From a virus (lineage: Duplodnaviria > Caudoviricetes): a DNA stretch of 64,000 nt. A model generated the notes under the pieces. The model saw nothing but the letters and a program-made list of their open reading frames with translations. It did not search any database and was not told where the DNA came from. The stretch covers positions 1,454 through 65,453 of IMG/VR virus record IMGVR_UViG_2851419669_000001; one strand, 5' to 3'. Shown one piece after another: positions 25,052 to 49,492 of this stretch (positions are counted from its first letter, which is position 1; every line of letters starts with the position of its first letter). The position numbers and the translations under genes are program-made.

Positions 25052-25321
25052 TTATTCGACTACGACCCAGTCATCAGCTAGCATATCAGTTTGACTAGCT
25101 AACCATGGAACTCGATCCATAGGTGCATCTGGATTGTTCGTGTGCAAACCAGTCGTATCAATATAAATGAAATCGTGCGTCATGACCTCATCAAAACGAT
25201 TGTTTGGTGTGCTTAAAGATTCTCCTTTTTTCAACTTAATGAAGATTCCTTTACCGTTCCAGCCTTTACGTGCAACACAGTTACCCTGTTTTAATTCTTC
25301 AAGTGCTTCTCCAAAATTCAT
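25052..25321 (-). CDS. DUF2829 protein (Tad2-like anti-Thoeris sponge)
   Basis: MNFGEAL..LK.G..VARKGWNGKG...PWLASQTDMLADDW signature. Confidence 0.85.
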   Translation of the reverse strand: MNFGEALEELKQGNCVARKGWNGKGIFIKLKKGESLSTPNNRFDEVMTHDFIYIDTTGLHTNNPDAPMDRVPWLASQTDMLADDWVVVE

Positions 25322-25916: not shown

Positions 25917-26189
25917 CTAATCTAGTAAGTCGTAAGTTTGCTTAAAAATATCAGGCTTGCATGGGTAAAGTTCACCGTGAACTCCTTTAATGATGTAATC
26001 ACCCCGCTCGGCAAGCATATCGCCTTCCAACGTGTGAATGACTAACTTTACATCAGGTGTGCCTTTATTTTCAAAACTGATTACACTTTTTTTAATGGCT
26101 TCACAAGCCCATTCTGGATCTTCTTTTTGGTCATAGTCTCCCGTCCATTTGAAACAATCAATAACTACTGGTTTCTTTTGTGCTTTCAT
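25917..26189 (-). CDS. Conserved phage protein (KKPVV/TLEG/GDYIIKG family)
   Basis: KKPVVI...[31 protein letters not shown]; GGAGG RBS. Confidence 0.75.
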
Positions 26190-26328
26190 GCTGTACCTCC
26201 TTATTTTTATCCAAACTAAAAGCGCCATGCTGTTTAGCACGACGCTTCATCCATTTATCTAAGTGGGCATCCATCTCCGCTTCTTGTGGCGTGACGTAGC
26301 CATATTTTGTGTTAATCATCTTTACCAT
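26158..26328 (-). CDS. Hypothetical phage protein
   Basis: [21 protein letters not shown] with GAGG RBS, co-oriented in operon. Confidence 0.5.
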
Positions 26329-26801
26329 GAGTTGCCTCGTTGCTTGAACAGAATGGATATTGTACCCCAAATAGTTCTAGATTAACTTTTTTCCAATCAT
26401 TCTCAATAGCCTCGTTGCCTTCCATATTCATTGTGGTTCCTCCTAATCGTATGTACTTAAAAAAGCCTGACGTCAGCCAGGCCTATGTATTGTTGCCTCA
26501 TAAGATGGCGATCCTGTTATTCAACAATACAATTTTATATCATACTATATCCAACATCATTTGAGTTGCAATACACACTATTTACTTTACTAAAAAGATC
26601 CCAACTAAATGTCAGGTTCCTGTACACGGTTATTATCAGAAAAACGATTATAGTTTTTGCAACCATGTTTGATTATATTACCACAGCGCACATGTTTCCG
26701 CATGCAATTTGGTGGCCAGTTTAATTGCGCTAATTATGTGATTCATAATACTATCAAATAGATGTATACTTATTTCATCTTTAACGAAAGGAGAGAGAAA
26801 T

Positions 26802-27071
26802 ATGTCATATGAAATAGTTAAAGTTCATACGGACAATAGTTTTGACACCGACGAATCTGATATTAAAAAGGTTCAACTATCAGATGGGAGTGAAGAAACC
26901 GTTGCGCAAGTGGTCAATTTTATTGATCAAAACCTTGAATATTATTTCACTTCACGTGAAGGCAATAAAACCGAAGTTGAAACAGTGCATCCCACTTACC
27001 GTGATCCATATATAAGAACTAAAGCAAACCAAACGACTTATGACAATCTACTCAGTTTGCCTAGATTCTAG
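26802..27071 (+). CDS. DUF3892-like protein (moron)
   Basis: C-terminal YIRTKAN.T..DNLLSLP; AAAGGAG RBS; own TATACT and downstream hairpin. Confidence 0.8.
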   Translation: MSYEIVKVHTDNSFDTDESDIKKVQLSDGSEETVAQVVNFIDQNLEYYFTSREGNKTEVETVHPTYRDPYIRTKANQTTYDNLLSLPRF

Positions 27072-27083
27072 TTTAAAGGACTC

Positions 27084-27230
27084 TCACTTTGAGGTGGGGG
27101 TTTTTGTTTTAACATTGAAATCATAGTGAGCTAATGTCTGACCATCAGCCAAATTTTCATTTGATCTGTTAATTGATACCAAACGACCATGTAAAACCTC
27201 ATTTACTAATTGTTCAATAATTTTAAACAT
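27084..27230 (-). CDS. Hypothetical 48-aa protein
   Basis: AAGGAGG RBS before ATG 27230. Confidence 0.45.
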   Translation of the reverse strand: MFKIIEQLVNEVLHGRLVSINRSNENLADGQTLAHYDFNVKTKTPTSK

Positions 27231-27261
27231 AACCAATTCCTCCTTAATTTCAATTTAACTA

Positions 27262-27322
27262 TATCGCCGGTAGGCCTCGAACCTACATCCCATTGTGGCT
27301 TGCCAATTAGCCCACAGCGATA
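27262..27322 (-). ncRNA. tRNA-like RNA lacking anticodon arm
   Basis: Acceptor TATCGCT/GGCGATA, D-arm, T-arm GTAGG-TTCGAGG-CCTAC; only ~10 nt between D and T arms. Confidence 0.6.
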
Positions 27323-27407
27323 CTCACATTTAACGGCCGACGTTAAATACGAAGACTAATGCCGGCGGCAGAGAGGAGCGCATCACCCCTTATAAATCCA
27401 CCGGCAA

Positions 27408-27480
27408 CGTAGCCTGCTGGACTCGAACCAGCGACAACCTGATTAACAGTCAGGTGCTCTACCAACTGAGCTAAGGCCAC
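27408..27480 (-). tRNA. tRNA-Asn(GTT)
   Basis: Full cloverleaf, anticodon arm CCTGA-CTGTTAA-TCAGG. Confidence 0.93.
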
Positions 27481-27562
27481 AATAATGCTAGGTAATAATT
27501 GCCCGGGGTGGCTTACCTAACATTCGATAATACTAATTTACTCCCCTTTTTGACTTATTTAC

Positions 27563-27611
27563 CGGAATCAACACGGAAACTTGTCGGAATTTACTCGGAA
27601 TTTTGTCGGAG
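27563..27611 (-). promoter_or_regulatory. Putative ArpU binding array/late promoter
   Basis: CGGA at 27563, 27574, 27585, 27596, 27607 (exact 11-bp period) right after the arpU stop. Confidence 0.7.
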
Positions 27612-27616
27612 TAAAT

Positions 27617-28087
27617 TCAGTCCTCGTCGTAGTGAGCAATAATCTCTGGCTCATACTTTTTAACGATCAGGTCTTCCACGCCATCCGGATATATCTCAGC
27701 GAACATTAACTGGGCTTGTTTCAAATACTTATTAAATGTTTTGTCGGAGATATTCAGGCTAATCATGCACTTAGTTTTCGAATACCGTTTAACATAGAGC
27801 AGCATTAATAGCTCTGAATATTTCTCCGTTTCTTCATCAATTGTAACAGCTTCAATGACCTTGACAACTAAATTAGCCATAAAATCATCGTTAGCTTTAC
27901 TAACTTGCTTGTCTTCAATATGGTTGCCATAGCTAGGACTTTTAGGCATTCCGTCCATTGCTGGACTTTGCAGGTTGAAATTAACCCTGCGAGCTCGTAG
28001 TCGCCATTTCCAATAGTCTTTTAGCACCCGTTCCGCATTAGCAATTGTTCGTTCTTCATCAACGTCCTTAAAAATGCTCTCCATCAT
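27617..28087 (-). CDS. ArpU-family late transcriptional activator
   Basis: T..NA..VL..Y, LQSP.MDGMPK, C-terminal HTH ending FAE.Y. Confidence 0.85.
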   Translation of the reverse strand: MMESIFKDVDEERTIANAERVLKDYWKWRLRARRVNFNLQSPAMDGMPKSPSYGNHIEDKQVSKANDDFMANLVVKVIEAVTIDEETEKYSELLMLLYVKRYSKTKCMISLNISDKTFNKYLKQAQLMFAEIYPDGVEDLIVKKYEPEIIAHYDED

Positions 28088-28384
28088 GCCACCCCTTGTT
28101 TTGACTGTGCTATAATTAATTTTGTAGGTATCAATCGTAGCGCGGTCAGCAATGGCAGCGCTTTTTATGTGTTATACTTACAACGGTCATTCGAGTGGTC
28201 CTAATGACTAGCCGCCTTAACAGGCGGCTTTTTGTATGCTATACTTCAGGCACACTTGTTTAGAGCTAACGCTACTAGTAATGATGCGTTACGTTTTGTT
28301 TGCAATTCTTAAATAATGGAACTACTCTGTAGTTGCACGAATGTATCAAGCCCAGCGTCTTACCATTTATTTGGTAAGACGTTT

Positions 28385-28810
28385 TTATTTGTCTTCCTCC
28401 AGTAGTTCCGGGTTCTCGTGCACGTTGCCAATAACTTCAAATTGATTACTCCAATAGTCATGCAGGCATGGTTCAATAAAATGTTCCCTTAATGGTTTCA
28501 AAAACATACCAGGTGTCCCGAACAAGTCTTCTGAAACGATTTCATTAACAGTTGGCTCCATTGTTAATTCACTCATATTGGACCACACATTTACAATATC
28601 GCCAATATAAATATCCCTGCCGTTCACGTCTTTCAGGCCGGTAAACTGCTCCAATTTATAATTGCCTGGATCATCCTCATATTTCATTTCTCCTGAATCA
28701 TTAATATCCCACCAAATATGTGAACCATCCAGGCTCATTACTGCGTTAATTTCATTTATATATTCAGAATCGATCTGATTCCACGCTCTAAACTTAATCA
28801 TCGTCGCCAT
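28385..28810 (-). CDS. YopX family protein
   Basis: IKFRAW, QFTGLKD.NG.DIY.GDIV, EVIGNVHENPELLE. Confidence 0.92.
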   Translation of the reverse strand: MATMIKFRAWNQIDSEYINEINAVMSLDGSHIWWDINDSGEMKYEDDPGNYKLEQFTGLKDVNGRDIYIGDIVNVWSNMSELTMEPTVNEIVSEDLFGTPGMFLKPLREHFIEPCLHDYWSNQFEVIGNVHENPELLEEDK

Positions 28811-29012
28811 CCCCTATCAAATCATCTAGTTCATTAATGGCCTGTTGAACACCAGCAGCCTCACTTTTAAGCTCAAACATCAAACACTGGTTGCGGTCCC
28901 TCGCCAATCTCCTACGCAACTCTTTCATTCCACTATTCATTTGCCGGTGCTTCCGTTTAATCGTTGAACGTTTCTTAGTGTGTTTAGGCATCTTCGTCCT
29001 CCGTGATTTCAT
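28794..29012 (-). CDS. Hypothetical phage protein
   Basis: ORF coupled to neighbours; likely start at MPKHTKKR. Confidence 0.5.
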   Translation of the reverse strand: MKSRRTKMPKHTKKRSTIKRKHRQMNSGMKELRRRLARDRNQCLMFELKSEAAGVQQAINELDDLIGDGDDD

Positions 29013-29364
29013 CTATTTCTACTCTAGGATTTCGTTTATCAACGGCAAATTCGTCCTGGAATCCTGTGATGTGCTTTCGATTGTCGTTGCCTAAAAGCCC
29101 AGCCTTCATAAAGCCGTCCAGCACAAACTTTTTAGCAAACGCGATATTATCCGCATCTTTCCGGTTGTTCTTCGTGTACCACGTAAATTTAAGCTTGCAA
29201 GGCCAGCTGAATTCGACTCCATAATTTCGACTAGCTCGCGCATATACACTACATAAGGCTGTGTACCGCTTCTTTAGTTTAGCTGCGGCGTATCTATTGG
29301 CCCGTTCAGCCTTGATGTACTCATTTAGGCTAGGCAGCTCGCCTTTGATCACGACTTTGCTCAT
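28984..29364 (-). CDS. RusA-family Holliday junction resolvase
   Basis: PSLN, D.DN...K...D, NPRVEI motifs. Confidence 0.8.
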   Translation of the reverse strand: MSKVVIKGELPSLNEYIKAERANRYAAAKLKKRYTALCSVYARASRNYGVEFSWPCKLKFTWYTKNNRKDADNIAFAKKFVLDGFMKAGLLGNDNRKHITGFQDEFAVDKRNPRVEIDEITEDEDA

Positions 29365-29879
29365 ACTTTCGGCACCCGGCTAATGTAATAGCCATTAACG
29401 ACCCCGTTAGACATACTGGCCTGTCTAATCGAAAATTCTGGGGCGCCAATCCTTTTACATAATCGTGCCAGTGTTTGATAGGCGATCACTTCATCAGGAT
29501 TGTTATACTTCTCAGCACGCCAGTAATCGTTAGTCAGTGGCAGGCTGTATTTGTGGACTAAATCCTTTACCCGATTTAATTCCATTGCCGTACTATCAGC
29601 TAGTTCTCTAAGCGTATGTTTGCCATGCTTATGTGCTTGCCGAATGGCTTTAATATCTTCACGTTCTCCCTGCTTCGGATCTTGTTTCATACTGGCTAGG
29701 TAGGCCGCATCACTGCGTACCTTAGTCCCAGGCTTAACCAGTCTAACCGGGAACGGCCATTCACCAGATTTGTAGTTATGTTGCGCGAGCTTAAACATTT
29801 CCGGTTCGGGCCCCATTGCTAGTGGGTGATCGATATCGGGTAGATCAGCGTTAATTACTAGCACCTGTGTTTCAGTCAT
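29361..29879 (-). CDS. Hypothetical phage protein (possible HTH)
   Basis: Translationally coupled ORF; TLRELAD segment. Confidence 0.6.
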   Translation of the reverse strand: MTETQVLVINADLPDIDHPLAMGPEPEMFKLAQHNYKSGEWPFPVRLVKPGTKVRSDAAYLASMKQDPKQGEREDIKAIRQAHKHGKHTLRELADSTAMELNRVKDLVHKYSLPLTNDYWRAEKYNNPDEVIAYQTLARLCKRIGAPEFSIRQASMSNGVVNGYYISRVPKV

Positions 29880-30163
29880 GCGCTCACCTCCGTTTGCAAT
29901 CCTTGTCTAGCTTGCTCTAGATCAATAAAATACTCGGCTGGCTTACCCCAACATTGGGTCAAATCAAAATTTAAGTCATCCCGCTGATATTCAATAATTA
30001 AAACCTCGAGTGCAAATAGCTTGTACTCATGAGCGCACACTTCATCTTGCGCGCTACCGCCAGCCTTTAAATGCCGTTTCATGCGCTGCTTAGTCCAGTG
30101 CAATGCGGCCGGTTCATAGGCATGGTTAGCGGCTAACTTGACTAATTGATTACCCCAATTCAT
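29876..30163 (-). CDS. Hypothetical phage protein
   Basis: Coupled ORF after replication initiator. Confidence 0.6.
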   Translation of the reverse strand: MNWGNQLVKLAANHAYEPAALHWTKQRMKRHLKAGGSAQDEVCAHEYKLFALEVLIIEYQRDDLNFDLTQCWGKPAEYFIDLEQARQGLQTEVSA

Positions 30164-31092
30164 TTAGCTTCCTCCTGACTGTTCATGAACGCTAGGAACG
30201 CCTCGTCGCTCATATCGTCCTGCTGGTCATCGCTTGAGCTTGACTTAGAATCCGCCTGAGAAGCGCCTTTTTGCATCCACTTTGGCGTAACTTCTTTACG
30301 GCGTGGCTTTGAATAGCCACTAGGTTTTCTTTCGCTCTTAATGCGGTCGTCATGATTAGCAGCAGCCTTTTTAGCCTGCTCTAACGTCGTAATATTTCGT
30401 TTCTTCCAGCCCGCAACAATTGCACGAACGTATTTCAAACATGCATTAGATCTAATCTGATGTTCTCCAGCAACCCAAATTGCATAGGCAATCACCTCAG
30501 GCTTGAACTCTTCCAGCCATTCATCAATCTCAGGTCGGGCAATACCATTTGGAAATCCCCACAGGTTGGTCCAGTCGTTAATGACCTGCTCGCGTGTGAC
30601 ACCCGCGTCATCATCATAATTATTTACTTTACTTTTATTTGATTTACTTTTATTTACTTTACTTTGTGGATTAATGTCGACATTAACTACACTTGTATCT
30701 TTATTGATGTCAACATTAATCCAATACTTAGTTGGTTTCTGTGATTTGCGACGTTTAGTAGCATCTTCATAGGTCTCTTGGATACGCTGGCTCGTTAATA
30801 CCTTAGCCGAATTGAACAGTTCCTCGCTAAAGGTTCCATAAGCAATCAAGCGGTTAACGATTTGATTAGCTAATTCAGGTGATACGCCTTCAATTCGATT
30901 AGCTAACTGCATCTGTTTCAATTTATTCCACTGCAAGTAGTATCCATTTTGGTACACCGCAGACAGCAGATAAATCATAAACAGAACACCTTTCGGTCCA
31001 AACTCGCCCATAATGGCTTCTGTCTTGTCGTTTACAGCAAAATCAACGTCTAATGGGAAGTAATCCAATCCCTCTTTTACTGGACGGGCCAT
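30160..31092 (-). CDS. Replication initiator (DUF4373/Lin1244-like N-term plus DnaD domain)
   Basis: MARPVKEGLDYFPLDV, LTS.RIQ..Y, Y...I...W....I.T. Confidence 0.85.
   Translation of the reverse strand: MARPVKEGLDYFPLDVDFAVNDKTEAIMGEFGPKGVLFMIYLLSAVYQNGYYLQWNKLKQMQLANRIEGVSPELANQIVNRLIAYGTFSEELFNSAKVLTSQRIQETYEDATKRRKSQKPTKYWINVDINKDTSVVNVDINPQSKVNKSKSNKSKVNNYDDDAGVTREQVINDWTNLWGFPNGIARPEIDEWLEEFKPEVIAYAIWVAGEHQIRSNACLKYVRAIVAGWKKRNITTLEQAKKAAANHDDRIKSERKPSGYSKPRRKEVTPKWMQKGASQADSKSSSSDDQQDDMSDEAFLAFMNSQEEAK
30621..30720. repeat. Putative prophage ori inside initiator gene
   Basis: TTTAC/TTTAT tandem repeats and two ATGTC(G/A)ACATTAA palindromic repeats. Confidence 0.55.
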
Positions 31093-37865: not shown

Positions 37866-37951
37866 GCGAGCGTAGTTCAACGGTAGAACGGTGCTCCTTT
37901 GAATTGCTAACTAGATACTAACAGATGTAGGTTCGACTCCTGCCGCTCGCA
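37866..37951 (+). ncRNA. tRNA-like RNA with aberrant anticodon region
   Basis: Acceptor GCGAGCG/CGCTCGC, D-arm and T-arm intact; ~36 nt centre without a canonical anticodon stem. Confidence 0.6.
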
Positions 37952-38006
37952 TTGACCAGTCAAGATGTCATGAAAAGCTAGAATATATTTTCAGGAGGAT
38001 ATTTAA

Positions 38007-38384
38007 TTGATTCAAGAATTCAAAGAATTTATCTCACGTGGTAATGTAATGGATTTAGCAGTCGGCGTTATTATTGGGGCTGCATTTACTGCTATCGTTA
38101 AATCATTGGTTAATAATTTAATAAATCCACTAATAGGTGTTTTTTTAGGGCAAATTGATTTCTCTAGCCTTGTTTTAAAAGTTGGCAATGCTACTTTTAA
38201 ATACGGTTCCTTTATTAATTCTGTCATTAATTTTTTGATTATTGCATTTGTGGTATTTTTACTAGTCAAAATGATTAATAAAATTATGCCTAAGAAGGAG
38301 GATGTCGAAGCCGATCCTATTCCAACAGCCGAGGAAAAATATCTTTCAGAAATTGTATCATTATTAAAGCAACAGAAAAAATAA
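38007..38384 (+). CDS. mscL: Large-conductance mechanosensitive channel
   Basis: [41 protein letters not shown]. Confidence 0.95.
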
Positions 38385-38401
38385 TTGTAGTAAGAAATCA
38401 G

Positions 38402-38770
38402 GTGTCATTTATGGAAAAATCAGAAGATTTATCTACTAATGATTGGAAACAAGCACAGTCTGCCGTCTTCAAAGAGTACGAAGATTTTATTAAAAGAGTT
38501 CAAGAAAATGGTGTAGACTATGCTATTCAGCATGCAAGACGTTTAATAAATTACCAAAAATTAGTTACCGAATGGCAACATAAAATAAATATTTTAATGG
38601 ACGATCTATCTAATAACCCCGTCGCTTTAAGTGTTTTTAAAGATTTAGAAGAAGGAAACGAAAGTCATGTTTTGAGTAGAGCTTACGAGATTATGAAAAT
38701 GTGGCCAGAGTTTAACCCAGAACCATTAACCATTTGGCTAGAGCTCATCGAAGACTCAGATGATGAATAA
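38402..38770 (+). CDS. Hypothetical protein
   Basis: ORF in lysogenic accessory operon. Confidence 0.65.
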   Translation: MSFMEKSEDLSTNDWKQAQSAVFKEYEDFIKRVQENGVDYAIQHARRLINYQKLVTEWQHKINILMDDLSNNPVALSVFKDLEEGNESHVLSRAYEIMKMWPEFNPEPLTIWLELIEDSDDE

Positions 38771-38800
38771 TAAAACTAAATGTCAAAGGAAGAATTTCAA

Positions 38801-39082
38801 ATGAAGATTATCAACGTCGCATTGCATGTTAAACCAGAACTCAAAAAAGAATATGAAGATTTCATTCATGAACTTGTTATTAATTCAGCACAAGAAGCTG
38901 GTAATGAATTCTATGGACATTTCAAAAAGTTAGACGGTGATAATGATTACGAAATTATCGAACACTGGAAAGATCAAGAAGCCGTGGATTTCCATAATGA
39001 CACCCCTCATTTCCAGAAATTTCTAGCACACGTCAGTGACTATCTAACTTCAGAACCAGAAATTACCAGAATGGATTATTAG
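38801..39082 (+). CDS. ABM/putative quinol monooxygenase family protein
   Basis: S..E.GN..Y, E.W.D.EA...H..TPHF. Confidence 0.85.
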   Translation: MKIINVALHVKPELKKEYEDFIHELVINSAQEAGNEFYGHFKKLDGDNDYEIIEHWKDQEAVDFHNDTPHFQKFLAHVSDYLTSEPEITRMDY

Positions 39083-39136
39083 TTTTCTCGCTTTACAATT
39101 AAGTAAAAATAAATAGCACTTAATTGCAAAGCTTCT

Positions 39137-39210
39137 GGACCTTTAGCTCAGTTGGTTAGAGCAGACGGCTCATAACCGTCCGGTCGTTGGTTCGAGTCCA
39201 ACAAGGTCCA
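39137..39210 (+). tRNA. tRNA with CAT anticodon, probably tRNA-Ile2
   Basis: Cloverleaf; GGACCTT acceptor and GACGG-CTCATAA-CCGTC arm as in Bacilli Ile2 tRNA. Confidence 0.9.
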
Positions 39211-39214
39211 TGAT

Positions 39215-39285
39215 GCGAGTGTAGTTTAGTGGTAAAACGACAGCCTTCCAAGCTGTAGTCGCGGGTTCGATTCCCGTCACTCGCT
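39215..39285 (+). tRNA. tRNA-Gly(TCC)
   Basis: Cloverleaf, ACAGC-CTTCCAA-GCTGT. Confidence 0.93.
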
Positions 39286-39351
39286 TTGTAAAAAAATTTA
39301 TTTTAACAAAAATCAAATTAATATTGTATATACTAATGCGGGGATTAAAGT

Positions 39352-40446
39352 ATGAATAATAAAGGTACTTTTGAAATTTTAACAATTCCAGATGACACAA
39401 GTTACTGGTTAGTTCGTGCTGATGGTGGAAAATATCTAGATGACTACATTGAAAATTCTTTCATTTCGATTGCACATAATCAGGTAACTATCGAGTCAAT
39501 CCACTCCGATGATAGCCCCAAAGATGGTCTAAAAAACCCAGATATCCATCAAATGTACATTGATTCTTATCCTCATCAAACCAAACATTGGCAGACGATT
39601 GCCTCGTCTCAATGTTTTGAATTTATTAATAACATGAAAATTGGAGATGTTGTTCTTACGCCTGGTAAAAGTTCTGATTATTTTGCAATAGGTGTTATTA
39701 CAGGAGATCCATTCGATGCTGATAAATCAAAATTAAGAACAAAAAAAGAAAACTCCGGACCCAATGGAATTCAATATAAAGTCGATCAAAATCTAAAACG
39801 GCGAAACGTTACATGGATGAAAACAATACACAGATCATCACTCCCCGGCGAACTTTATTGGATTTTGTCTGCACATCAAGCAATTTTTAACATTTCAAGT
39901 TACGCGGAATACATTGATCCTTTAATATTTCCTCTTTTTCAAAAACATAAAAAAATTCATTTAACCGTCTACACCACATTAGAAGACGATTTAACTCTTG
40001 CAAATTGGCAAGGTATTGTCGAAATGGCAAAAGACGAACAGTCTAATTATTTACACCAAGTAGAACTACAAGCAGACGTTCATTGTCCGGGCACCTTAGG
40101 ATTTATAACTGGTCAGGAAAACATACAAGCAATTATAAACATCATTCACACAGTAGCTAGTCTTGGAGGGAATCAAGTAATTACTTTTGGTGGAATTGTT
40201 ACTTTAATCTCTTTAGTAATTGGGAAAGAGGGGAAGAAAAAAGGCATTCTGAATTGGTGGGATGATTACCGAATCTCGCACATACAAAAGAAGGCCGAAC
40301 TTAAACGTCTCAAACAAGAAACAAAAAATGTTCCTGATGAAGTGAAGAATATCAAACCTCAGATCAAGGATGTTGGAACCGTAATTTCACACGAAAACCT
40401 AAGATCGAAGGAAAAGCCAGAGAATGATCAGGAACCAGAGAAATAA
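39352..40446 (+). CDS. EVE/PUA-like domain protein with C-terminal hydrophobic helices, defence candidate
   Basis: YWLVRA..G, F...MKIGDVVL.P...FAIG.I, R.V.W motifs; hydrophobic segment near aa 260-290. Confidence 0.6.
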   Translation: MNNKGTFEILTIPDDTSYWLVRADGGKYLDDYIENSFISIAHNQVTIESIHSDDSPKDGLKNPDIHQMYIDSYPHQTKHWQTIASSQCFEFINNMKIGDVVLTPGKSSDYFAIGVITGDPFDADKSKLRTKKENSGPNGIQYKVDQNLKRRNVTWMKTIHRSSLPGELYWILSAHQAIFNISSYAEYIDPLIFPLFQKHKKIHLTVYTTLEDDLTLANWQGIVEMAKDEQSNYLHQVELQADVHCPGTLGFITGQENIQAIINIIHTVASLGGNQVITFGGIVTLISLVIGKEGKKKGILNWWDDYRISHIQKKAELKRLKQETKNVPDEVKNIKPQIKDVGTVISHENLRSKEKPENDQEPEK

Positions 40447-40588
40447 ATATTGGAATAACAAGAATGGAAAATATCCAAATGGCAAAGGGAATATAACTAT
40501 GAATTAGCGGCCACAGTATTAATGCAATGAATGTCGACTCCATTGACGTTAACATAAGATATGCTACTACCTTCTTCATAACCTTCAC
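40364..40588 (-). CDS. Small membrane protein
   Basis: AAAGGAAG RBS, hydrophobic; overlaps the convergent gene's 3' end. Confidence 0.45.
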   Translation of the reverse strand: MKVMKKVVAYLMLTSMESTFIALILWPLIHSYIPFAIWIFSILVIPIFISLVPDHSLAFPSILGFRVKLRFQHP

Positions 40589-40735
40589 TTCCTTTCTTCC
40601 ACTTACATATGATTACACATATCATATATAAAATAAACAGCACTTTACTACTTTAGTGCTTTTATTTTAGTACATAAAAGAACATACGTTTGGAAATGTC
40701 AGCCTATTGTTATTTCCAGTTGGGAGGAATAAAAC

Positions 40736-41857
40736 ATGTCAGTAACCAAACTGAATAATGGTAAATGGCAAGCCCGTGTCTCTTATAAAGATGATGACGG
40801 TAACTATAAGTCAGTTACTCATTTAGAAAAGCGCAAAACTGACGCTGTTGAGTGGGAAACTAAAACTAAGAATGCTCTGTTGGAAGGTGCTGACTTATCA
40901 CGTAGCACCGAGAGTCTAAAACACTACTTTCTTGATTGGATCAGAATTTACAAAACTGACGGCGTATCGCGTCATACCCACGAGCTATATATGGGCAACT
41001 GGCGCCACGTCTCTGCCTATTTTAAGGATAAACCTATGAGCTCAATTAAACGCCCAGATTACCAGAAGTTCCTGAATGAATTTGGCCGCAGTCATGGAAT
41101 TGCCACATCTCACAAGCTTCATCAACAAGTACACACCGCAATCAAGGACGCTGTAGCCGATGGTATTCTAAAACGTGACTTTGCTTACAAGGCACACGTC
41201 ACTGGACGCCCTCCTAAGCCTGTAGAGGAAAAGTATTTAACGTTGTCCGATTATAAGAAGCTGCGTAGATATCTCATTAAAACGGCTGATTATGACCACA
41301 TGACTATGCTGATGATGCTGTTTCAATTAGAAACTGGGACCAGGTTCGAGGAAGCTGCTGGTCTGACGTGGGATAATTTGGATTTGAATAATGGAATAGT
41401 TCACATTAAACAGCAATGGGATGCACGTAGACAGACTTTTCGTCCAACTAAAGGAAATGGACAGGCCGATGGAGATATAACCATAGGACCCGCCTACTGT
41501 CGTTTTATGAGGAGTTATCGCAGTGCGCAGAAAGATTATTTAGAACTACACGAAATGAAAAACCCTAAGAACCTCGTATTTTGGTCCAAACTAGGAAAAA
41601 TAGTGGGCAATGGGAATGCAAACGAAGAGCTAGGACGTATTTGTAATCGCCTAAAGATCAATAAAGTTACAACACACGCCATGAGACACACACACGCTTC
41701 GATTCTTATCTTAAATCATGAGTCCCTTCCCTATGTTCAACATCGCCTTCGACATCAGAAACTAGAAACGACCGTTAACACCTACGTCCATCTTATTGAA
41801 GAAGAAAACGGCGTGTCAGATAAGAAGGCTACCGAGCTAATGGACGAAGGATTTTAA
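40736..41857 (+). CDS. int: Prophage tyrosine integrase
   Basis: TG.R..E, HAMRHTHAS, RL.H.....T...Y; next to att. Confidence 0.95.
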   Translation: MSVTKLNNGKWQARVSYKDDDGNYKSVTHLEKRKTDAVEWETKTKNALLEGADLSRSTESLKHYFLDWIRIYKTDGVSRHTHELYMGNWRHVSAYFKDKPMSSIKRPDYQKFLNEFGRSHGIATSHKLHQQVHTAIKDAVADGILKRDFAYKAHVTGRPPKPVEEKYLTLSDYKKLRRYLIKTADYDHMTMLMMLFQLETGTRFEEAAGLTWDNLDLNNGIVHIKQQWDARRQTFRPTKGNGQADGDITIGPAYCRFMRSYRSAQKDYLELHEMKNPKNLVFWSKLGKIVGNGNANEELGRICNRLKINKVTTHAMRHTHASILILNHESLPYVQHRLRHQKLETTVNTYVHLIEEENGVSDKKATELMDEGF

Positions 41858-42076
41858 AAATGATAATTTTATGATTGCTGTAGTCCTTGTGCCGCAAGGG
41901 ATTACAAAATCATTTGTTAATTTTTCTTCCAAAAACTGCTATATTTTGGCTACTTTTTTCGTTTTTGGAAGAATCGTGGAAGAACATATCGAGTTTGAGT
42001 GGTTTTCGAGTGTAAAACAAAAGCACCAAAACGCCTTTATATCAGCGTTTTGGTGCTTTGTCGTTTCTCTATATTT

Positions 42077-42097
42077 GTCGACTTATCACCCGCACGG
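42077..42097. repeat. Prophage att core, right copy
   Basis: Identical to 192..212; overlaps tRNA-Glu 3' end. Confidence 0.93.
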
Positions 42098-42157
42098 GGA
42101 TCGAACCCGTAACTCCGCCTTGAGAGGGCGACGTCTTAACCAATTTGACCAGCGGGC
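42086..42157 (-). tRNA. tRNA-Glu(CTC)
   Basis: Cloverleaf, TCGCC-CTCTCAA-GGCGG. Confidence 0.93.
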
Positions 42158-42207
42158 ACAAATTCATTTATTATCTTACCGAATGATAAGCGGCTTGTCA
42201 AATATAA

Positions 42208-42429
42208 TTAAGATTTTTGCCACCTAAAAATCGTCACAACAACTAAACCAACAAATAAGAGCAAACAGTAGGCCACACTACACCAAAAAACGAAAGTCAA
42301 TAATTGCGGTAACAAAAAGCTGCGCATAACTGCTAATCCGATGGCCGTGACCGCCCATACGATCAATTGTTGTCGCAGATGATCGAATAAATGATCTAAT
42401 TCTGACTTCGACATACACTCACCTTCCAT
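42208..42429 (-). CDS. Small host membrane protein
   Basis: Two TM helices; lies between the two tRNAs, outside both elements. Confidence 0.65.
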   Translation of the reverse strand: MEGECMSKSELDHLFDHLRQQLIVWAVTAIGLAVMRSFLLPQLLTFVFWCSVAYCLLLFVGLVVVTIFRWQKS

Positions 42430-42548
42430 TCAACTAGTTTAGCCACCAACTGATACGATATTCAAGCAAAAATGCAAAAAATAGACACAAAGTTTCAGCA
42501 AAGTCTTGACAGTATTTGCTGGAAAAGTTACTATTAAATAGTTGTTAT

Positions 42549-42621
42549 TGGGTATTCGCCAAATTGGTAAGGCAGCGGACTCTGAATCCGTAATTTACTG
42601 GTTCGAGCCCAGTATACCCAA
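42549..42621 (+). tRNA. tRNA-Gln(CTG)
   Basis: Cloverleaf, GCGGA-CTCTGAA-TCCGT. Confidence 0.92.
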
Positions 42622-42622
42622 T
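42608..42622. repeat. Satellite att core, left (CCCAGTATACCCAAT)
   Basis: Identical to 56998..57012; 3' end of tRNA-Gln. Confidence 0.9.
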
Positions 42623-42834: not shown

Positions 42835-43140
42835 TTAAGCCATTAGTCTAACGCTTATTATCAAGGCAATGACTGCGATAGTAATGTGTATCACAAAAAT
42901 AACCTTTCTTATAGTTTTAGGTTCATGATAAGCAGACGGCCAATGCACAAAATCAAGCACTGACAAAACCATAAAATTAAACGTTAATAATTTTATTCCA
43001 AAAACAGGTACCGGCGTAGATAAACATAAAACTATGGGGCCATCTTGAAATATGCTAAAAACTATCAAATAAGCCGGAACAATTAACAATATAATATTTA
43101 AAGTAACTTCAAACAACCATTTTTTTATAAAAGAACTCAT
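42835..43140 (-). CDS. Satellite accessory membrane protein
   Basis: About three TM helices, AT-rich, terminal cargo position. Confidence 0.6.
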   Translation of the reverse strand: MSSFIKKWLFEVTLNIILLIVPAYLIVFSIFQDGPIVLCLSTPVPVFGIKLLTFNFMVLSVLDFVHWPSAYHEPKTIRKVIFVIHITIAVIALIISVRLMA

Positions 43141-43222
43141 TTACAAGGACACTCCAGCAAATATTTAACTGCACATTATTAATTATACACTAAAATTGTT
43201 GAAGTTTGGCTATAGTAGGCAT

Positions 43223-43603
43223 TCAAACCGTTAGATCACTGTAAAATTTTGCAAAAGCGTGTAATGCTTCATTCTTCATATAATTAAACTTGCTGACACT
43301 AACCGATAATTGGCCACAAGCTTCACTGCGGCTGAAACGTTTCTTAATAATGTAATCATGTAAGATGAACTGATATTGTGGATCATCAATTGCATTTAGG
43401 GCGTCTTCGACTTCTTTTAACTGGTAAGACAAATCAACGTGGTTTATCAGGCGGCTTTCAGCACCGTTTCGGCTGCTATGGCTTGATACTCCATCGAACG
43501 AGGGACTAGAAACTTGATTAAAAGCCGTCAATTCACGTTTTAGTTTGGCATATTGCTTTAATAAATTACAAATCTTCTTAACATCTTGGCGCATTAGAAT
43601 CAC
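43223..43603 (-). CDS. ArpU/RinA-like transcriptional regulator
   Basis: LLKQY, SSPSFDG, C-terminal HTH ending AL..FA..Y. Confidence 0.75.
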   Translation of the reverse strand: MILMRQDVKKICNLLKQYAKLKRELTAFNQVSSPSFDGVSSHSSRNGAESRLINHVDLSYQLKEVEDALNAIDDPQYQFILHDYIIKKRFSRSEACGQLSVSVSKFNYMKNEALHAFAKFYSDLTV

Positions 43604-43744
43604 ACTTTCTGATCCCAGATATATGTATTAAAAAAACGGGGCTATTGCACCCCGTCTTGACTAATATCAACACTTATATTATAGCACTTAAAACAAATAT
43701 TTTCACCTATAATTGTTTAAAATGAATCATATTCACTTTAAAAC

Positions 43745-44014
43745 TTATCCGGTTACTAAACCGCGCAATTGTTGAATCATGCTAACAACTTGATACGGTG
43801 TCTTTGTCATATCGGTTACCCGGTTTTGATACCAGAATTGTGTCAGCAAGGACACGGCAAAATCGTACTGTTTGTAGCCAGTCAAATCTCCATTTTTGCT
43901 AACAGCTGTCTGTACGTAGTCCTTGGCGGCGTCTAAATAGCTTTGGATCATTGGGTCATCTTCGGTTACGTCAATTCTTAGGCTTAGTTTAATATCATCA
44001 ACGGTTACAGCCAT
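43745..44014 (-). CDS. Head-tail connector (HK97 gp6-like)
   Basis: K..LRID..EDD..I..Y..AA, WY.NR, I.QLR. Confidence 0.9.
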   Translation of the reverse strand: MAVTVDDIKLSLRIDVTEDDPMIQSYLDAAKDYVQTAVSKNGDLTGYKQYDFAVSLLTQFWYQNRVTDMTKTPYQVVSMIQQLRGLVTG

Positions 44015-44129
44015 GTAATCACTTCCTTTGTGGGGGTAACGATTCGTTCCCCCCCTTAGTTTTAATTTATGTATAGGGGTGTCCATTTTAGACACCCCCT
44101 TGTATAACCGTGCCCAAAAGTGGGTACGA

Positions 44130-45695
44130 TTATTTACCAGGCGTGGTTTTTAACGCCACGTTGATTGCAGCGGTCTTATCAATCACTTTATAATCGTTCC
44201 GCACAATGACGGAAAGACCTTGGCTAAACTGGTCAAACTTGTCCCATTGGGCGGTTACTTGGTTACGCCGGAAAACCGCCACCGCTTGTGATAAGTCCCC
44301 CACAATCATTGGGGAAGTCCCGTCGACGTTGTTGGCCAGTAACTTGTCACTAATCATGACGACTGGCGCCCCTAACAAGGTGAAGCCACTGGGTGCCGTT
44401 GGGTTCGGTTGTAACAGGTAACGTCCCTCGGAATCTTTCAAGGTATCAAGGTAGTTGAACCCGGACTGGTTCACTAACCACATTTTGCTCAAAGCGGGAT
44501 CTAACGTCACATTGAAAATCTTTTTAAGATCATCAATATTGGTAGCCGTTGCTTTGGTGAAACTGGTTCCCGTTAACAAACTCATAATCTGCGTGTTGTC
44601 CGTGTTATCAACCAATTGTTGTAATTGGTTTTTAACTTCGCTGACAATATCAACTTCGGCGTCTTCCACCACTTCATTAGATAAGGCAATCTTACCCGCC
44701 CGGGTCTTCACATCAAATGGCACTTCCGTAAACATGTTCGCGTTAACGTCGGCAATTTCCGCTAGTTCTTCCTTAGTAGCCAATACCGCAGATTGTCGGC
44801 TAGTAGCAATTGGATAAGTCCCGGAACCACTAGAAACTTGCTTGACTGTCGCATATTGGGCAAGATTGTAATTGGATTGCTTTAATTGGAAAACGGGGGT
44901 AATCAGTTCCTTAGGAATAACCGCGCTGACCCCGTCAGTCTTTAAACCGTCCCGTGTTTCCCCGTGTGTCCGTACATATTGTTCAAATGCCGGAACACCG
45001 GTTTTGCTTTCATTGCCATTAGGATCAATAATTGTTTGTTTTGTCATGTTGTCAGGCTCCTTTGCTTGATTGATAAATTTTTCGTAACTACGACTTTCAA
45101 TTTGAATCACTTGCTGAACACTCGACTGCCCATAACTTGGAATGGCCGTAGTCGTTAATTCGTATAAGTCTTTGATATGATTAACCGTCCGGGTCACTTG
45201 ACCACTCGCAGTATCTTGCGTCCAAGTATCATCGCCATTGTCTAAATCAAAGGTAAACGAGCACCCACCGATTACCCCATTTTTAATATTGTTATACGTA
45301 TCCATCGCATAACTAACGCTAGGGTCTAGCTCCGCCGTAAACTTTAAACCCGTATCATCAACGCTCGTGGTGAGGGTCCCGTTGTCGGCCCGGGCTAACG
45401 GTTGCGCCCAATTATGACTATTCAATAGGACTAATTTTGATAAGTCCAAGCCATCAAGGGCGGCGGGATCAATCATTTCAACAAATTCAGTGCCATCATT
45501 CGTACTCATTTTCAATGAGGGACTATTGAACACTACGGCATAACCAGAAATAACCGGCTTGCCATCAACTTGTTGGGCTTGCGTGGCTGGTTCACCAGGA
45601 TTAGACTGATCCTGATTTTCGGGTTTGGTTGGAACGGCGTCACGTTTTTCGGCTTTCAGTTCGGCCGCTAAGGTAAATCGTTGCTTATTCTTCAC
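44130..45695 (-). CDS. Fused prohead protease-major capsid protein (HK97 fold)
   Basis: N-term ISGYAVVFN, F.E.I...A, CSFTF, YELT..AIPSY; C-term LKDSEGRYLLQP, TLLGAPV, GDL. Confidence 0.9.
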   Translation of the reverse strand: MKNKQRFTLAAELKAEKRDAVPTKPENQDQSNPGEPATQAQQVDGKPVISGYAVVFNSPSLKMSTNDGTEFVEMIDPAALDGLDLSKLVLLNSHNWAQPLARADNGTLTTSVDDTGLKFTAELDPSVSYAMDTYNNIKNGVIGGCSFTFDLDNGDDTWTQDTASGQVTRTVNHIKDLYELTTTAIPSYGQSSVQQVIQIESRSYEKFINQAKEPDNMTKQTIIDPNGNESKTGVPAFEQYVRTHGETRDGLKTDGVSAVIPKELITPVFQLKQSNYNLAQYATVKQVSSGSGTYPIATSRQSAVLATKEELAEIADVNANMFTEVPFDVKTRAGKIALSNEVVEDAEVDIVSEVKNQLQQLVDNTDNTQIMSLLTGTSFTKATATNIDDLKKIFNVTLDPALSKMWLVNQSGFNYLDTLKDSEGRYLLQPNPTAPSGFTLLGAPVVMISDKLLANNVDGTSPMIVGDLSQAVAVFRRNQVTAQWDKFDQFSQGLSVIVRNDYKVIDKTAAINVALKTTPGK

Positions 45696-46791
45696 TCGTA
45701 TTCACTCCATTCTTTTGTAAGTTTAAGAAAATATTGCCATCGTCAGTTGGTGGCAAGCCAATCTTGGCCCGAGCTTCGTTACGGCTCATAACGCCACCAG
45801 TGAAACCAGCCACCGCTTGGGCTTGTTGCGTTTGCGGATCAAGGCTCAATAGCTTGTCCGTATTAAACGTAAAGTCATGACCAAACTTGAACGACAGCTC
45901 GCTGGTAAAGCTATCAAAGTAATGTTGCAACGTCCCTTGTAGATACTGCACGCCACTTTGTTCTTGGTTAGAATGATCGTTTTCAACCCCTAAGCGCTCC
46001 GGTGGTAAGCCAAAAGCCTTAGCAATTTGTCGGGTCGTCCAGTCATTAGAATTGACCAGCTTTAATACATCGGTATTTAAGGATAAGTTGCTAATGTCCA
46101 TCGTATCGTCAGTCACAATCGTGTTTACCGCATTGTCACCCGTATTGGCTTCATCAAACTGTTTACGAATATTGTCCTTAGCTTCCGGCCCTAAATCAGA
46201 TTGATGGACTTTAATAATCGTGGTGCCGTGCACACCAGCAGTAAAAAAGCCGGTTAGCAATTTATTGCCGGCCGACTGAATCTGGCGTTCATCTTTGAGG
46301 GCATATAGGGGACTAATTCCCGATACACCGTCTTTGGTGAAATATTTAAAATGTAAAATGTTGTTAGGCGCGATCTGACGACTGTTACCGCCAGTTGGGG
46401 TATAGGTGTAGGTCAACGCCCCACTGACGTCATCTTGTTCAACTGTCAATTGGTTATTGGCAATCAATTTCAACGTATGATTAGGCAAAATCTCGGCAAA
46501 ACTATTGCCATTGAGTAACAGGTTAGCCGCTAACGCATATTTAAAATGGTACCCGTCCATCTGACTATTGGGGGTCTGATTAATCATCGTGTTAAAGATT
46601 GCTGTATCACACATAATTGGATTGCTGGCAATATCGCTCGCAATAATATTAATCGCCGCGTAAATGTCACTATTACGCAACACCGCCGCACTCACAAACG
46701 TATACGGGTCGTTGCTTGATAAACTAACCAAGGCGTCAGCCACCGGATCATGCGTGCCGCTGGTGGTATTGCTTTTAACAAAAAAACTCAT
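45685..46791 (-). CDS. Portal protein, HK97 type
   Basis: LLLNGNSF, ILHFK....DG..GISPL, IAKAFGLPP, NEAR...GLPP. Confidence 0.92.
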   Translation of the reverse strand: MSFFVKSNTTSGTHDPVADALVSLSSNDPYTFVSAAVLRNSDIYAAINIIASDIASNPIMCDTAIFNTMINQTPNSQMDGYHFKYALAANLLLNGNSFAEILPNHTLKLIANNQLTVEQDDVSGALTYTYTPTGGNSRQIAPNNILHFKYFTKDGVSGISPLYALKDERQIQSAGNKLLTGFFTAGVHGTTIIKVHQSDLGPEAKDNIRKQFDEANTGDNAVNTIVTDDTMDISNLSLNTDVLKLVNSNDWTTRQIAKAFGLPPERLGVENDHSNQEQSGVQYLQGTLQHYFDSFTSELSFKFGHDFTFNTDKLLSLDPQTQQAQAVAGFTGGVMSRNEARAKIGLPPTDDGNIFLNLQKNGVNTSEE

Positions 46792-47007
46792 TTAATCACC
46801 TCTTTGCTTTTCATAATTAATTAGCAAGGCCAGCAGAATCATGGCTATACCAGCCAATATTAACCCCGCTTGCCAGCTGAACCAGCAACCAAAACCAATC
46901 ACTAAGCAGATTAAGCCAAGCACCAACAAGATTGTTTGTACATAATTAGAACAGATCTGCCGCAGTCGCTGTTTTGTAGTAATCTTCTGCATGCTGTTGA
47001 TCCTCAC
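46792..47007 (-). CDS. Small membrane protein between terL and portal
   Basis: Two TM helices; start uncertain. Confidence 0.6.
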   Translation of the reverse strand: MRINSMQKITTKQRLRQICSNYVQTILLVLGLICLVIGFGCWFSWQAGLILAGIAMILLALLINYEKQRGD

Positions 47008-48649
47008 TTTCTTGGTAATAGTCCATACCAGCTACAAATGCGTTAATCAACGCCGCAATCGGGTCAATCCGGTTACTATTACGGGCTTTATCCAGTTGCC
47101 AACCATTGTTTATCACTTTCAAGATGGCGTTATTGACCGCATAAGCGAGAATCTTATTGCCGTTATGTTTAATCTTGTCATCGTAAAGCTGATCACGGAA
47201 ATTACGAGTTGGAATATTCAAAGTCTTGGTGCCTTGTCGCACTTCAAACAGTGGGTAGCTTAATTTCTCGAATTTTGTAATTAACGTTTGCGCGTTATAC
47301 GGGTCATAAGCGATTGCTTTCACTTTCCAGTTGTATTTCCCGACCAGTTTTTGTACAAAATCAAATAGATTGTCATAATCAATAATGCCACTATCTAATC
47401 GGGTGATACTACACTCACCCGCCCGTTCCATTGACCTGTAATCAATGCCATCACGTTTAATCTTAGAATCAAGGCCGTATTTAGTCCCCACAAATGAATG
47501 ACTGTCACAATAAAACTGACCGTTACCAATTGGAACGAGCCAACTAACCGCGGTTAAGTCATTACTTTTTGATAAATCAATGCCAATATAGGCGTCACGA
47601 TTATGTAAGTCGGGCACCTTTGCCAATTTACCAGCGGCCCAATCGTCTGCTGAAATATAACTGTCCTCGCTGGCTTGCAACCACATGTTGAAGTTCTTAA
47701 CCAGTATTGGAATGAGATTATTTTGTTTAATGGCAAGGTCAACGTCAGCCTGAATCTTTTCCGTCATGCGTTGTTTAACGTGTGGTTCACTGAACAACGG
47801 GTTGGCCTTAATCCAATTGGCTTGATCGTAAACTTCTTCGCGGTCGTCCAGTTCCCATATTGCCACAAAATAACGGTCAGCTTCGGTTTTCCCCTTTAAA
47901 ACGTCCGTCAGCATGTCATATTCGGCGTGCATTGGGACGTTAAGGTTAAGACCCGAGGTGGAAATAACCGCCAGCAGGGAGTTATCTTCTTGTGCTTGAC
48001 CAGACTTTAAAACGTTGTACACTTTGCGGTCTTTAGCTTCGTGCCATTCATCTAAAATAACGGTCGTCCCGGCATAACCATCAAGCGTACTGGTATCACT
48101 GGCAAGGGCCAAGGCTTGCGAATCAGTTTCTAAGTCAGTAATGGCTTGCTTCTGTACCTTAATTCGTTGCCGCATGTACTTCGATTGCTTGCGGACTTGC
48201 CGTAACCCACTTGAAAGCATGTCATAGCCCAATTTAGCTTGTTTAAGTGCGTTGCTGACGAATAATACTTGTCGGTTGCGGGCGGGCTGACGTTCTCTTA
48301 AAAGGCCATTAGCGGCCATGCCAGAAGCCAGATAGGTTTTACCATTCTTACGGGCCATACTAATAAACGCCCGATCATAGCGGCGGTTACCAGTAGTTTT
48401 TTCGCGCCAGCCATACAGTTCGCTAATAATCCATTTTTGAAATGGTTGCATGGTGAGTTGGCTACCGTCAGTCTTAGGCATTAATTCGATAAATTTGACC
48501 GCCTGTGCCGCTTTGTCTTCGTCGTAGTAGAACGGGAAGCTGTCGTCCTTAGAACGGCTTAAATCGCGTTTAAATCGCTCACACGCCCATTTGATTTTTT
48601 GACCAGCCAACACTTGACCCGATAACACTTGGTCAACATATTCAATCAT
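46946..48649 (-). CDS. terL: Terminase large subunit (cos/HK97 type)
   Basis: ARKNGKT, ILDEWH, GIDLSKSNDLTA, RIDPIAALINA. Confidence 0.95.
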   Translation of the reverse strand: MIEYVDQVLSGQVLAGQKIKWACERFKRDLSRSKDDSFPFYYDEDKAAQAVKFIELMPKTDGSQLTMQPFQKWIISELYGWREKTTGNRRYDRAFISMARKNGKTYLASGMAANGLLRERQPARNRQVLFVSNALKQAKLGYDMLSSGLRQVRKQSKYMRQRIKVQKQAITDLETDSQALALASDTSTLDGYAGTTVILDEWHEAKDRKVYNVLKSGQAQEDNSLLAVISTSGLNLNVPMHAEYDMLTDVLKGKTEADRYFVAIWELDDREEVYDQANWIKANPLFSEPHVKQRMTEKIQADVDLAIKQNNLIPILVKNFNMWLQASEDSYISADDWAAGKLAKVPDLHNRDAYIGIDLSKSNDLTAVSWLVPIGNGQFYCDSHSFVGTKYGLDSKIKRDGIDYRSMERAGECSITRLDSGIIDYDNLFDFVQKLVGKYNWKVKAIAYDPYNAQTLITKFEKLSYPLFEVRQGTKTLNIPTRNFRDQLYDDKIKHNGNKILAYAVNNAILKVINNGWQLDKARNSNRIDPIAALINAFVAGMDYYQESEDQQHAEDYYKTATAADLF

Positions 48650-49447: not shown

Positions 49448-49492
49448 TATCAACGTTTCTGGGCTGTCATGCTGTTTTGAATTAGTCTCGTA

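Follow-up and report, generated by a model that had tools for sequence, protein, structure and literature searches.

A stackable array of short promoter-terminator units antisense to the early operon lies upstream of arpU in a lactobacillus prophage and is a candidate brake on the late-gene activator

RESULTS

Four tandem antisense units occupy the gap upstream of arpU. Between the final gene of the early operon and the gene for its arpU-family late activator, a lactobacillus prophage has a 297-nt gap (28088-28384) that holds four tandem units, each consisting of a promoter, a short predicted noncoding RNA, and a hairpin, and all placed on the + strand against the genes on either side. The units are built alike, are conserved in related phages, are confined to one strand, vary in number from phage to phage in a modular manner, and are associated with arpU. 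We think there is an even chance that the array acts as a set of constitutive cis-antisense, convergent transcription units that would brake read-through into arpU.

Genomic context of the array

The window, by which we mean the whole 64,000-nt stretch that was analyzed, derives from an IMG/VR provirus record. Phages of Lactiplantibacillus plantarum, phig1e and H1-Guo among them, match it at the DNA level. Two adjacent phage-like elements are present: the prophage carrying the array (below ~41857), with its integrase (40736-41857) and tRNA genes (37866-42622), and a compact second element (42835-53121) that encodes a protease-capsid fusion, portal, TerL, TerS, HNH, and a VapE-like primase and in which a CCACGT-containing word is repeated at ~49880-49990. 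The genes around the array are all on the - strand and run from replication and recombination genes (Lin1244/DnaB_2, RusA-like) through YopX, the gap, arpU, and tRNA-Asn to TerS and TerL. The YopX-family gene (28385-28810, -; PF09643 YopX, 3.2e-21) is the final gene of the early operon before the array. The gene on the other side of the gap (27617-28087, -) encodes a 156-aa protein that scored 57.1 bits against TIGR01637 phage_arpU (cutoff, 43.1) and matched phrog_248 (transcriptional activator) at 5e-30; a Pfam search of this protein returned no match. Because the protein scores as ArpU, the gap can be said to separate the final early gene from the activator of the late genes.

Several other features of this region were noted. 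A Tad2-like (Thoeris anti-defence 2) gene (25052-25321, -) adjoins terS, and a DUF3892 gene (26802-27071, +) lies between arpU/tRNA and the late genes. The tRNA-Asn gene (27407-27481, -) is just downstream of arpU, and tRNAs were seen again beside arpU in other loci (tRNA-Ile in PLE3). A good promoter-like site is found within arpU (TTGTCA-16-TACAAT with TG, 27840-27867, -), and in the RNA-seq run X24 only the 3' part of arpU was covered at 20-55x (region 27534-27868), with short inserts stopping near 27819. The site within arpU may be a promoter that serves tRNA-Asn.

Anatomy of the four units

Inspection of the sequence alone had previously suggested that four promoter-short RNA-terminator units lie in the gap on the + strand, antisense to the early operon, and all four were recovered at the proposed positions. 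The extended -10 promoter of the first unit, U1 (TGTGCTATAAT, 28106-28116, +), is 19 nt from the arpU start codon and adjoins the complement of the arpU Shine-Dalgarno (SD) sequence. From its presumed start, the predicted RNA is ~43 nt long (28124-28166, +), with a hairpin at 28139-28162 and a T5 run at 28162-28166, and folds at -12.5 kcal/mol (z -1.9). U2 has the extended -10 promoter TGTGTTATACT (28168-28178, +) and a predicted RNA of ~50 nt (28185-28234, +) made up of a 5' hairpin (28185-28209), a terminator (28210-28229) of 8 pairs, 6 of them GC, and a T5 run (28230-28234). The entire unit folds at -20.4 kcal/mol (z -3.7).

U3 begins with the extended -10 promoter TATGCTATACT (28235-28245, +; TTAACA-17-TATACT with TG, 10/12). 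Its predicted RNA (28252-28298, +) contains a hairpin at 28261-28298, with a core at 28267-28272/28286-28291 and a T4 run at 28294-28297. This terminator hairpin is weak (-9.9 kcal/mol, z -0.6). The U4 promoter (28300-28328, +) is of the -35/-10 type, with TTGCAA at 28300-28305, a 17-nt spacer, and TACTCT, a weak -10 box, at 28323-28328. The predicted RNA of ~52 nt (28335-28386, +) ends in a terminator of 12 pairs (28354-28383) and a T5 run (28382-28386) that overlaps the YopX stop codon, and U4 folds at -18.9 kcal/mol (z -5.4). In a scan of 26000-31000, the U2 and U4 hairpins ranked first and second among 12 terminator sites. The expectation that every unit ends in a hairpin terminator was borne out for U1, U2, and U4, which have a hairpin followed by a U-run, and not for U3, with its weak hairpin (z -0.6). 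Read-through from U3 into U4 may occur, especially in two relatives (L014 and L015) in which a 5-nt deletion has removed the U3 T-run; in most relatives, this run is T5. A single RNA spanning U3 and U4, with no U4 promoter, was considered, since TACTCT sits in a small hairpin. It was set aside, and a separate U4 promoter is favored because an alternative third unit found in relatives has a homologous TTGCCA-17-TAGAAT promoter.

The units are dissimilar to one another. What they have in common is limited to junctions of 17-20 nt, in which the terminator of one unit meets the promoter of the next, repeated at 67- and 64-nt spacing. A GTATCAA word noted before the U1 and U4 hairpins was not kept in relatives of U1, which have GGAATCAAT or GGAATTAGT instead. 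The proposal that the units contain no open reading frame held: no ORF of at least 30 aa is present in the gap, save those overlapping the end of YopX.

The pattern TRTGNTATAMT occurs three times in the window when both strands are counted, and the three matches are the -10 boxes of U1, U2, and U3. Shuffled sequence gave a mean of 0.89 matches, with 6 of 100 shuffles reaching three. A stricter rule required TGnTAnnnT with at least 5/6 matches to TATAAT, with a hairpin no weaker than -7 kcal/mol and a T-run at a distance of 30-80 nt downstream. This rule found six matches in the window, three of which are U1-U3 and are contiguous; 20 block-shuffled windows gave 0-6 matches (mean, ~1.6). The predicted promoters lie opposite the transcription unit that they would target. 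Other matches to the strict rule, at 43636-43686 (-) and 54197-54266 (+), are both in the second element. A fifth unit of like build (49722-49796, +; CGTGATATAAT) is found in the 990-nt gap of the second element between HNH (50119-50514, -) and terS (48646-49128, -). It has a predicted RNA of ~55 nt and a terminator near-identical to that of U2 plus T5, and it is likewise antisense to an operon at an early/late boundary.

Unit number is modular in close relatives

A protein search with ArpU identified 43 viral loci, 39 of which encode an ArpU with 90-100% identity and were treated as close prophages. Among these 39, the number of units ranged from one (n = 1) through two (n = 22) and three (n = 6) to four (n = 10). 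U1 and U2 were both present in 38 of the 39, the exception being L039, which has U1 only, and U3 and U4 were both present in 10. Six loci have a different third unit (TTGCCA-17-TAGAAT, RNA of ~58 nt) with its own terminator; in L030 and L033, the promoter and 5' segment of this unit are homologous to those of U4, and its terminator is different. In the 22 loci that end after U2, the T-run directly adjoins the stop codon of a gene on the - strand. The notion of a stackable array is supported by these relatives, in which one to four units are joined at the same terminator-T5/extended -10 junction, and by L. casei-group phages, which are arranged likewise. The sequence-only reading had named an alternative, that each unit might be a promoter/terminator pair left around a lost gene. 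No + strand gene was found between promoter and terminator in any of the 39 close relatives, and this alternative fails.

We aligned the U1-U2 region of 29 sequences, 28 of them distinct. The extended -10 boxes of U1 and U2 were invariant in all 29 and the RNA bodies varied, the U2 promoter (TGTTATACT) was identical in all 29, and the U2 5' hairpin was near-invariant. The U1-U2 block also occurs beside two other arpU alleles, that of phig1e (Rorf147) and that of L135, L139, and L163. Since it is thus found beside three different arpU alleles in L. plantarum-group phages, the block travels independently, as a module that begins at the complement of the arpU SD. An exact 15-nt pattern scan of viral contigs returned 116 stretches, of which 14 were true U1 homologues and the remainder chance matches. 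Among 23 species genomes of the genus, 10 had matches, with U1+U2 in six cases and U1 only in five. No stand-alone U2, U3, or U4, and no unit of any kind outside the arpU slot, was found in these 23 genomes.

An antisense unit recurs upstream of distantly related arpU genes

The proposed link to arpU was upheld by more distant phages, since the arpU-proximal unit recurs, across genera, upstream of arpU genes whose products are only 31-40% identical. In L. nangangensis and L. modestisalitolerans (ArpU 79% and 75% identical), the promoter and hairpin-T5 are kept and the hairpin sequence is different. In L166 and L167, the U1 hairpin has been swapped for another sequence, with a hairpin and T5 retained. 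Lentilactobacillus prophages (ArpU 31-33% identical) carry, at the corresponding position, a nonhomologous unit that is built alike.

Two surveys were carried out with the strict rule. Of 201 Lactobacillaceae species genomes, 73 exceeded the TIGR01637 cutoff, and the best 30 loci of these were tested. An antisense unit was present 0-150 nt upstream of the first matched ArpU residue in 24 of these best 30, and a sense-strand unit in the same gap in none; only three other matches to the rule occurred in their 100,481 bp, both strands included. The independent lineages number fewer than 24, because the loci are the best-scoring ones and include near-duplicates (L193-L196; L180/183/186/191/192). 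Among the six misses, four (L188, L199, L201, and L203) have a unit by eye that fails the strict rule, and L181 has nothing at the unit position. At this position, L190 has the promoter TGTGATATGAT, behind which come an SD and a hydrophilic ORF of 38 codons rather than a short RNA and terminator. The second survey covered 401 Bacilli genomes, of which 110 exceeded the cutoff. Among the best 30 loci of these, an antisense unit was found in seven, with two more seen by eye (L210 and L225); 23 failed the strict rule, and nine other matches occurred in 101,712 bp (both strands). Because, of the 30 loci in each survey, 6 from Lactobacillaceae and 23 from Bacilli fail the rule, and because the Streptococcus phage OlisA2 (S. 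oralis) has no unit ahead of arpU, arpU evidently functions without a unit in many phages.

The predicted RNAs of 28 units from other genomes had a median length of 43 nt (range, 33-56). What is conserved is a strong constitutive-type promoter that faces the early operon and directly adjoins the arpU SD, together with an efficient terminator at a distance of 40-55 nt, whereas the RNA body drifts.

Named phages show the same arrangement. In the L. casei group, PL-1 has one unit ahead of arpU, Lc-Nu two, A2 three, and PLE3 four within ~420 nt, all with the same type of T-run/G-TTATACT junction; the second -10 box of A2 is weak (TATACC). L. reuteri LR1 and phig1e have one unit each ahead of arpU. 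The arpU gaps of seven named phages contained no sense-strand terminator or extended -10 box. The distal units of A2, Lc-Nu, and PLE3 (L239, L240, and L244) are longer (~80-100 nt) and include a long GGAGGCC...GGCCTCC hairpin. Possible tiny ORFs of 16 and 23 codons were seen in the distal units of A2 and PLE3, and the frame is not conserved between them.

A convergent brake on arpU is the proposed explanation

In the explanation that we favor, four small sigma-A units would fire against the early operon, U1-U3 from -35-independent extended -10 promoters and U4 from a -35/-10 promoter, each yielding a predicted noncoding RNA of ~45-55 nt. We infer that these RNAs are produced, and also which way, and by what mechanism, arpU would be affected. 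Because each unit has its own intrinsic terminator, the antisense transcription would never reach the early genes. A promoter and terminator scan of 28088-28384 revealed no promoter-like or terminator-like site on the - strand. Since the gap thus lacks a sense-strand promoter or terminator, transcription most probably enters arpU by reading through from the early genes. One candidate for an arpU sense promoter in the gap (TTGATA, 28133-28128, -) was rejected, having no usable -10 box and not being conserved in relatives. In staphylococcal and enterococcal phages, ltr/arpU is described as lying within, or being coregulated with, a cI-controlled early transcription unit, and for 80alpha, read-through from cro to rinA is given as one reading (PMC3753634).

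Two routes to a brake can be envisaged. In the first, polymerase bound at, or firing from, the convergent promoters would collide with or obstruct polymerase arriving from the early operon, and the complex at the U1 promoter would cover the region in which ribosomes bind arpU. In the second, the short RNAs would pair with the complementary arpU leader and direct double-strand-specific cleavage. A study of S. aureus has reportedly revealed pervasive antisense-driven RNA processing. The U1 RNA itself could not directly mask the ribosome-binding site, because its predicted end is ~25-35 nt upstream of the SD. By either route, the outcome would be a brake or threshold: the master switch for the late genes would stay off in lysogens and, upon induction, come on later. 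U1 would be the conserved core and U2-U4 add-ons whose number may tune the threshold, more units giving a stronger brake or a higher threshold. A role in cis suits the array because the RNA bodies vary while the promoters and terminators are fixed, and because complementarity is automatic in cis. The near-invariant 5' hairpin of U2 exceeds what a pure cis role needs, and this counts against the reading as a brake. Also against it are the weak U3 terminator and U4 -10 box, the distance of the predicted U1 RNA end from the SD, the lack of compensatory double substitutions in the close relatives, and the arpU loci that fail the strict rule.

We also put forward, more tentatively, a general version of this idea: that a modular antisense threshold acts on the late-gene master switch of temperate phages of the Lactobacillaceae and some other Bacilli, in which one constitutive arpU-adjacent unit, the ancestral brake, is accompanied by extra units, gained and lost via a standard junction, that tune the amount of early transcription needed. 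If this were so, the number of units would set lysogen stability and lysis timing. ArpU-type activators time the packaging and lysis genes in many phages of lactic acid bacteria, enterococci, and their relatives, and a conserved, unannotated antisense element before arpU would amount to a missing layer of control over lysogen stability and lysis timing. This is of relevance to starter and probiotic strains that carry prophages and to the design of phage-based tools, and the array would provide a compact natural example of copy-number-tunable convergent transcription. The idea is directly testable, because variants with one to four units have already been sequenced (PL-1, Lc-Nu, A2, PLE3, and the L. 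plantarum group).

Transcript data and searches for targets in trans

Of 24 RNA-seq runs found, four were compared with the locus (two as raw reads and two as contigs); these were not small-RNA libraries. Coverage over the gap was 0-3 reads. Six raw reads of X24, a library that is apparently unstranded (26 versus 24 reads over arpU) and would not capture 45-nt RNAs, cross the U2 terminator into the alternative third unit. The contigs came from strains with other sets of units.

The sequence-only reading had also suggested antitoxin mimics, guides, or decoys, and this suggestion found no support: the units do not repeat each other, there is no toxin-like gene after them, no outstanding target in trans was found in the window or in one host genome, and in 23 genomes of the genus they were confined to the arpU slot. 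Nor do they resemble a ToxI-like type III antitoxin array, given that each unit has its own promoter and terminator and that near-identical repeats are lacking; the next + strand sequence after the array is the antisense of YopX. When duplex energies were calculated over the whole window on both strands, the best z scores beyond the cis sites were -4.2 to -5.7 (~12,800 windows). In the host-genus genome G001, complementarity was limited to 11 short matches with E values of 0.1-5, the best being 16-20 nt long (E, 0.1-0.8). Target prediction for the units, which had been proposed as a check, thus brought up no outstanding trans site in the window or in this one genome. A 19/20 match to the U1 5' segment in G001 has the same sense as a host ORF and is not a target; the U2 hairpin has a 16/16 match, located upstream of a gene for an IS30-type transposase, whose size is that expected by chance (E, 0.8).

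These searches bear on a different role in trans, in which U2-U4, and perhaps U1, would be small-RNA "morons" directed against RNAs or proteins of the host or of rival phages (as regulators, decoys, or anti-defence factors), the slot merely tolerating insertions. We regard this as rather unlikely, and several observations are nonetheless in keeping with it. Each unit comes with a promoter and a terminator of its own, behaves as a block in gain and loss, and is on the strand opposite the phage operon, as morons are. The U2 5' hairpin hardly varies, and the 5' segment shared by U4 and the alternative third unit ahead of different terminators is the pattern expected of a seed region. In addition, a similar unit with a U2-like terminator is found elsewhere in the window (49722-49796). 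The lack of an outstanding complementary site weighs against trans action, as do the variation of the U1 body among close relatives and the absence of the units outside the arpU slot in the 23 genus genomes. A trans role would also leave unexplained the constant slot upstream of arpU, the antisense orientation, and the conservation across genera.

Punctuation and sense-strand alternatives

It is improbable, in our estimation, that the array serves mainly as punctuation or as a recombination linker, with terminators that halt antisense transcripts from the + strand genes at 26340-27071, junctions that provide patches of homology for module exchange, and RNAs that are by-products. A scan of 26000-31000 found no + strand terminator between the DUF3892 gene, which ends at 27071, and U1/U2, as this proposal would have it. 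The U1-U2 block is flanked in relatives by different genes on both sides, with the joints exactly at the T-run, and junction sequences recur at regular spacing (64-67 nt). For punctuation, however, a terminator alone would suffice, and the invariant strong promoter before every terminator is not accounted for. Moreover, the same promoter-terminator pair, of unrelated sequence, is present beside arpU in phages without such + strand genes.

The hairpins can also be considered from the point of view of the sense strand. In the array, T-runs follow the hairpins on the + strand only. Counting paired cells in the alignment, the U1 terminator was paired in 241 of 280 cells as a + strand RNA and in 214 as a - strand RNA; the corresponding values were 166 and 119 of 168 for the U2 5' hairpin, 140 and 94 of 140 for its alternative register, and 211 and 185 of 224 for the U2 terminator. 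One-sided changes in relatives yield G.U pairs on the + strand, and the U1 terminator has an invariant U.G pair that is compatible with the + strand only. In all four predicted helices tested, G.U pairs favor a + strand RNA. RNAalifold analysis of the close relatives found compensatory double substitutions in 0 of 31 pairs. Among the 28 units from other genomes, the hairpin was more stable as an antisense-strand RNA in 25, a bias that is in part built in because the hairpins were chosen on that strand.

It is most improbable, therefore, that the hairpins act on the sense strand by giving structure to the 5' leader of arpU, whether for processing, for stability, or as a site of pausing, with incidental + strand promoters: the hairpins do lie in the would-be arpU leader, and the entire gap folds better than its shuffles on the - strand too (z -3.8), but the one-sided T-runs, the G.U pairs that become A.C mismatches on the - strand, the stability bias in other genomes, and the invariant extended -10 boxes all argue against it.

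Comparison with known systems

An Rfam 15 search of the window matched only tRNAs, and no family reached its gathering threshold in the gap. Similarly, a tRNA search found none in the gap, and across the window the CRISPR and tracrRNA families of Rfam all stayed below their gathering thresholds. In other arpU loci, Rfam 15 matched only tRNAs (20 Lactobacillaceae loci) or nothing (9 Bacilli loci). A permissive search of 27900-28600 gave only subthreshold matches to GcvB (22.9/42), RNAI (18.6/47), and Lacto-phage-1 (14.9/50), the last being within the arpU coding region. All were taken as chance matches.

Antisense control of phage regulators is a known principle, exemplified by lambda paQ, lambda OOP, and P22 sar. 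The lambda paQ transcript is antisense to the late regulator gene Q; paQ lies within the coding region of Q, and CII activates it. OOP RNA is antisense to cII and overlaps its 3' end. Like these, the array belongs to a temperate phage and would direct short antisense transcripts, with their own promoters and terminators, against a stage-committing gene so as to restrain late or lytic functions. Unlike them, its units lie in the untranslated gap upstream of arpU and have constitutive-looking extended -10 promoters; the predicted RNAs are ~45 nt long and number one to four per array, and the hosts are Gram positive. There is no sequence or protein homology between the lambda systems and the array.

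Convergent or antisense control is also known from Gram-positive mobile elements, namely prgQ/prgX (Anti-Q) of the Enterococcus plasmid pCF10 and the countertranscripts of pIP501 and pT181. These systems, too, employ short antisense RNAs of Firmicutes with strong terminators, convergent to the leader of an operon, and act through interference, RNA pairing, or both. Each of them uses one antisense RNA, and attenuation, where it is used, involves an induced terminator in the sense leader, whereas the array has no sense-strand terminator; the tandem arrangement and the link to arpU are not known from the plasmid systems.

As in the ArpU/RinA/LtrC late-activator module of Gram-positive phages, the arpU gene described here is a member of the family at the end of the early region, before terS. 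In its passages on antisense RNA, small RNA, and terminators, the published account places a terminator and the promoter of terS after ltr, mentions short RNAs in the early region that it leaves unresolved, and describes no antisense unit upstream of ltr (PMC3753634). Full-text searches of the openly accessible literature likewise brought up no paper on an antisense RNA upstream of arpU, rinA, or ltrC. What is new is the conserved arpU-proximal mini-gene and its stackable arrays.

Annotation pipelines overlook such units or call them hypothetical proteins. The E. faecalis phage phiFL2A, whose ArpU has been the subject of experiments (PMC3753634), has one longer antisense unit, in which TGATATAAT is followed by ~185 nt and then a terminator. 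The gene gp32 of this phage (L238, 199-452), annotated as encoding a hypothetical protein, lies antisense and directly upstream of arpU, begins after TGATATAAT, and runs to an intrinsic terminator. Rather than a protein gene, gp32 may be a noncoding antisense unit of like kind.
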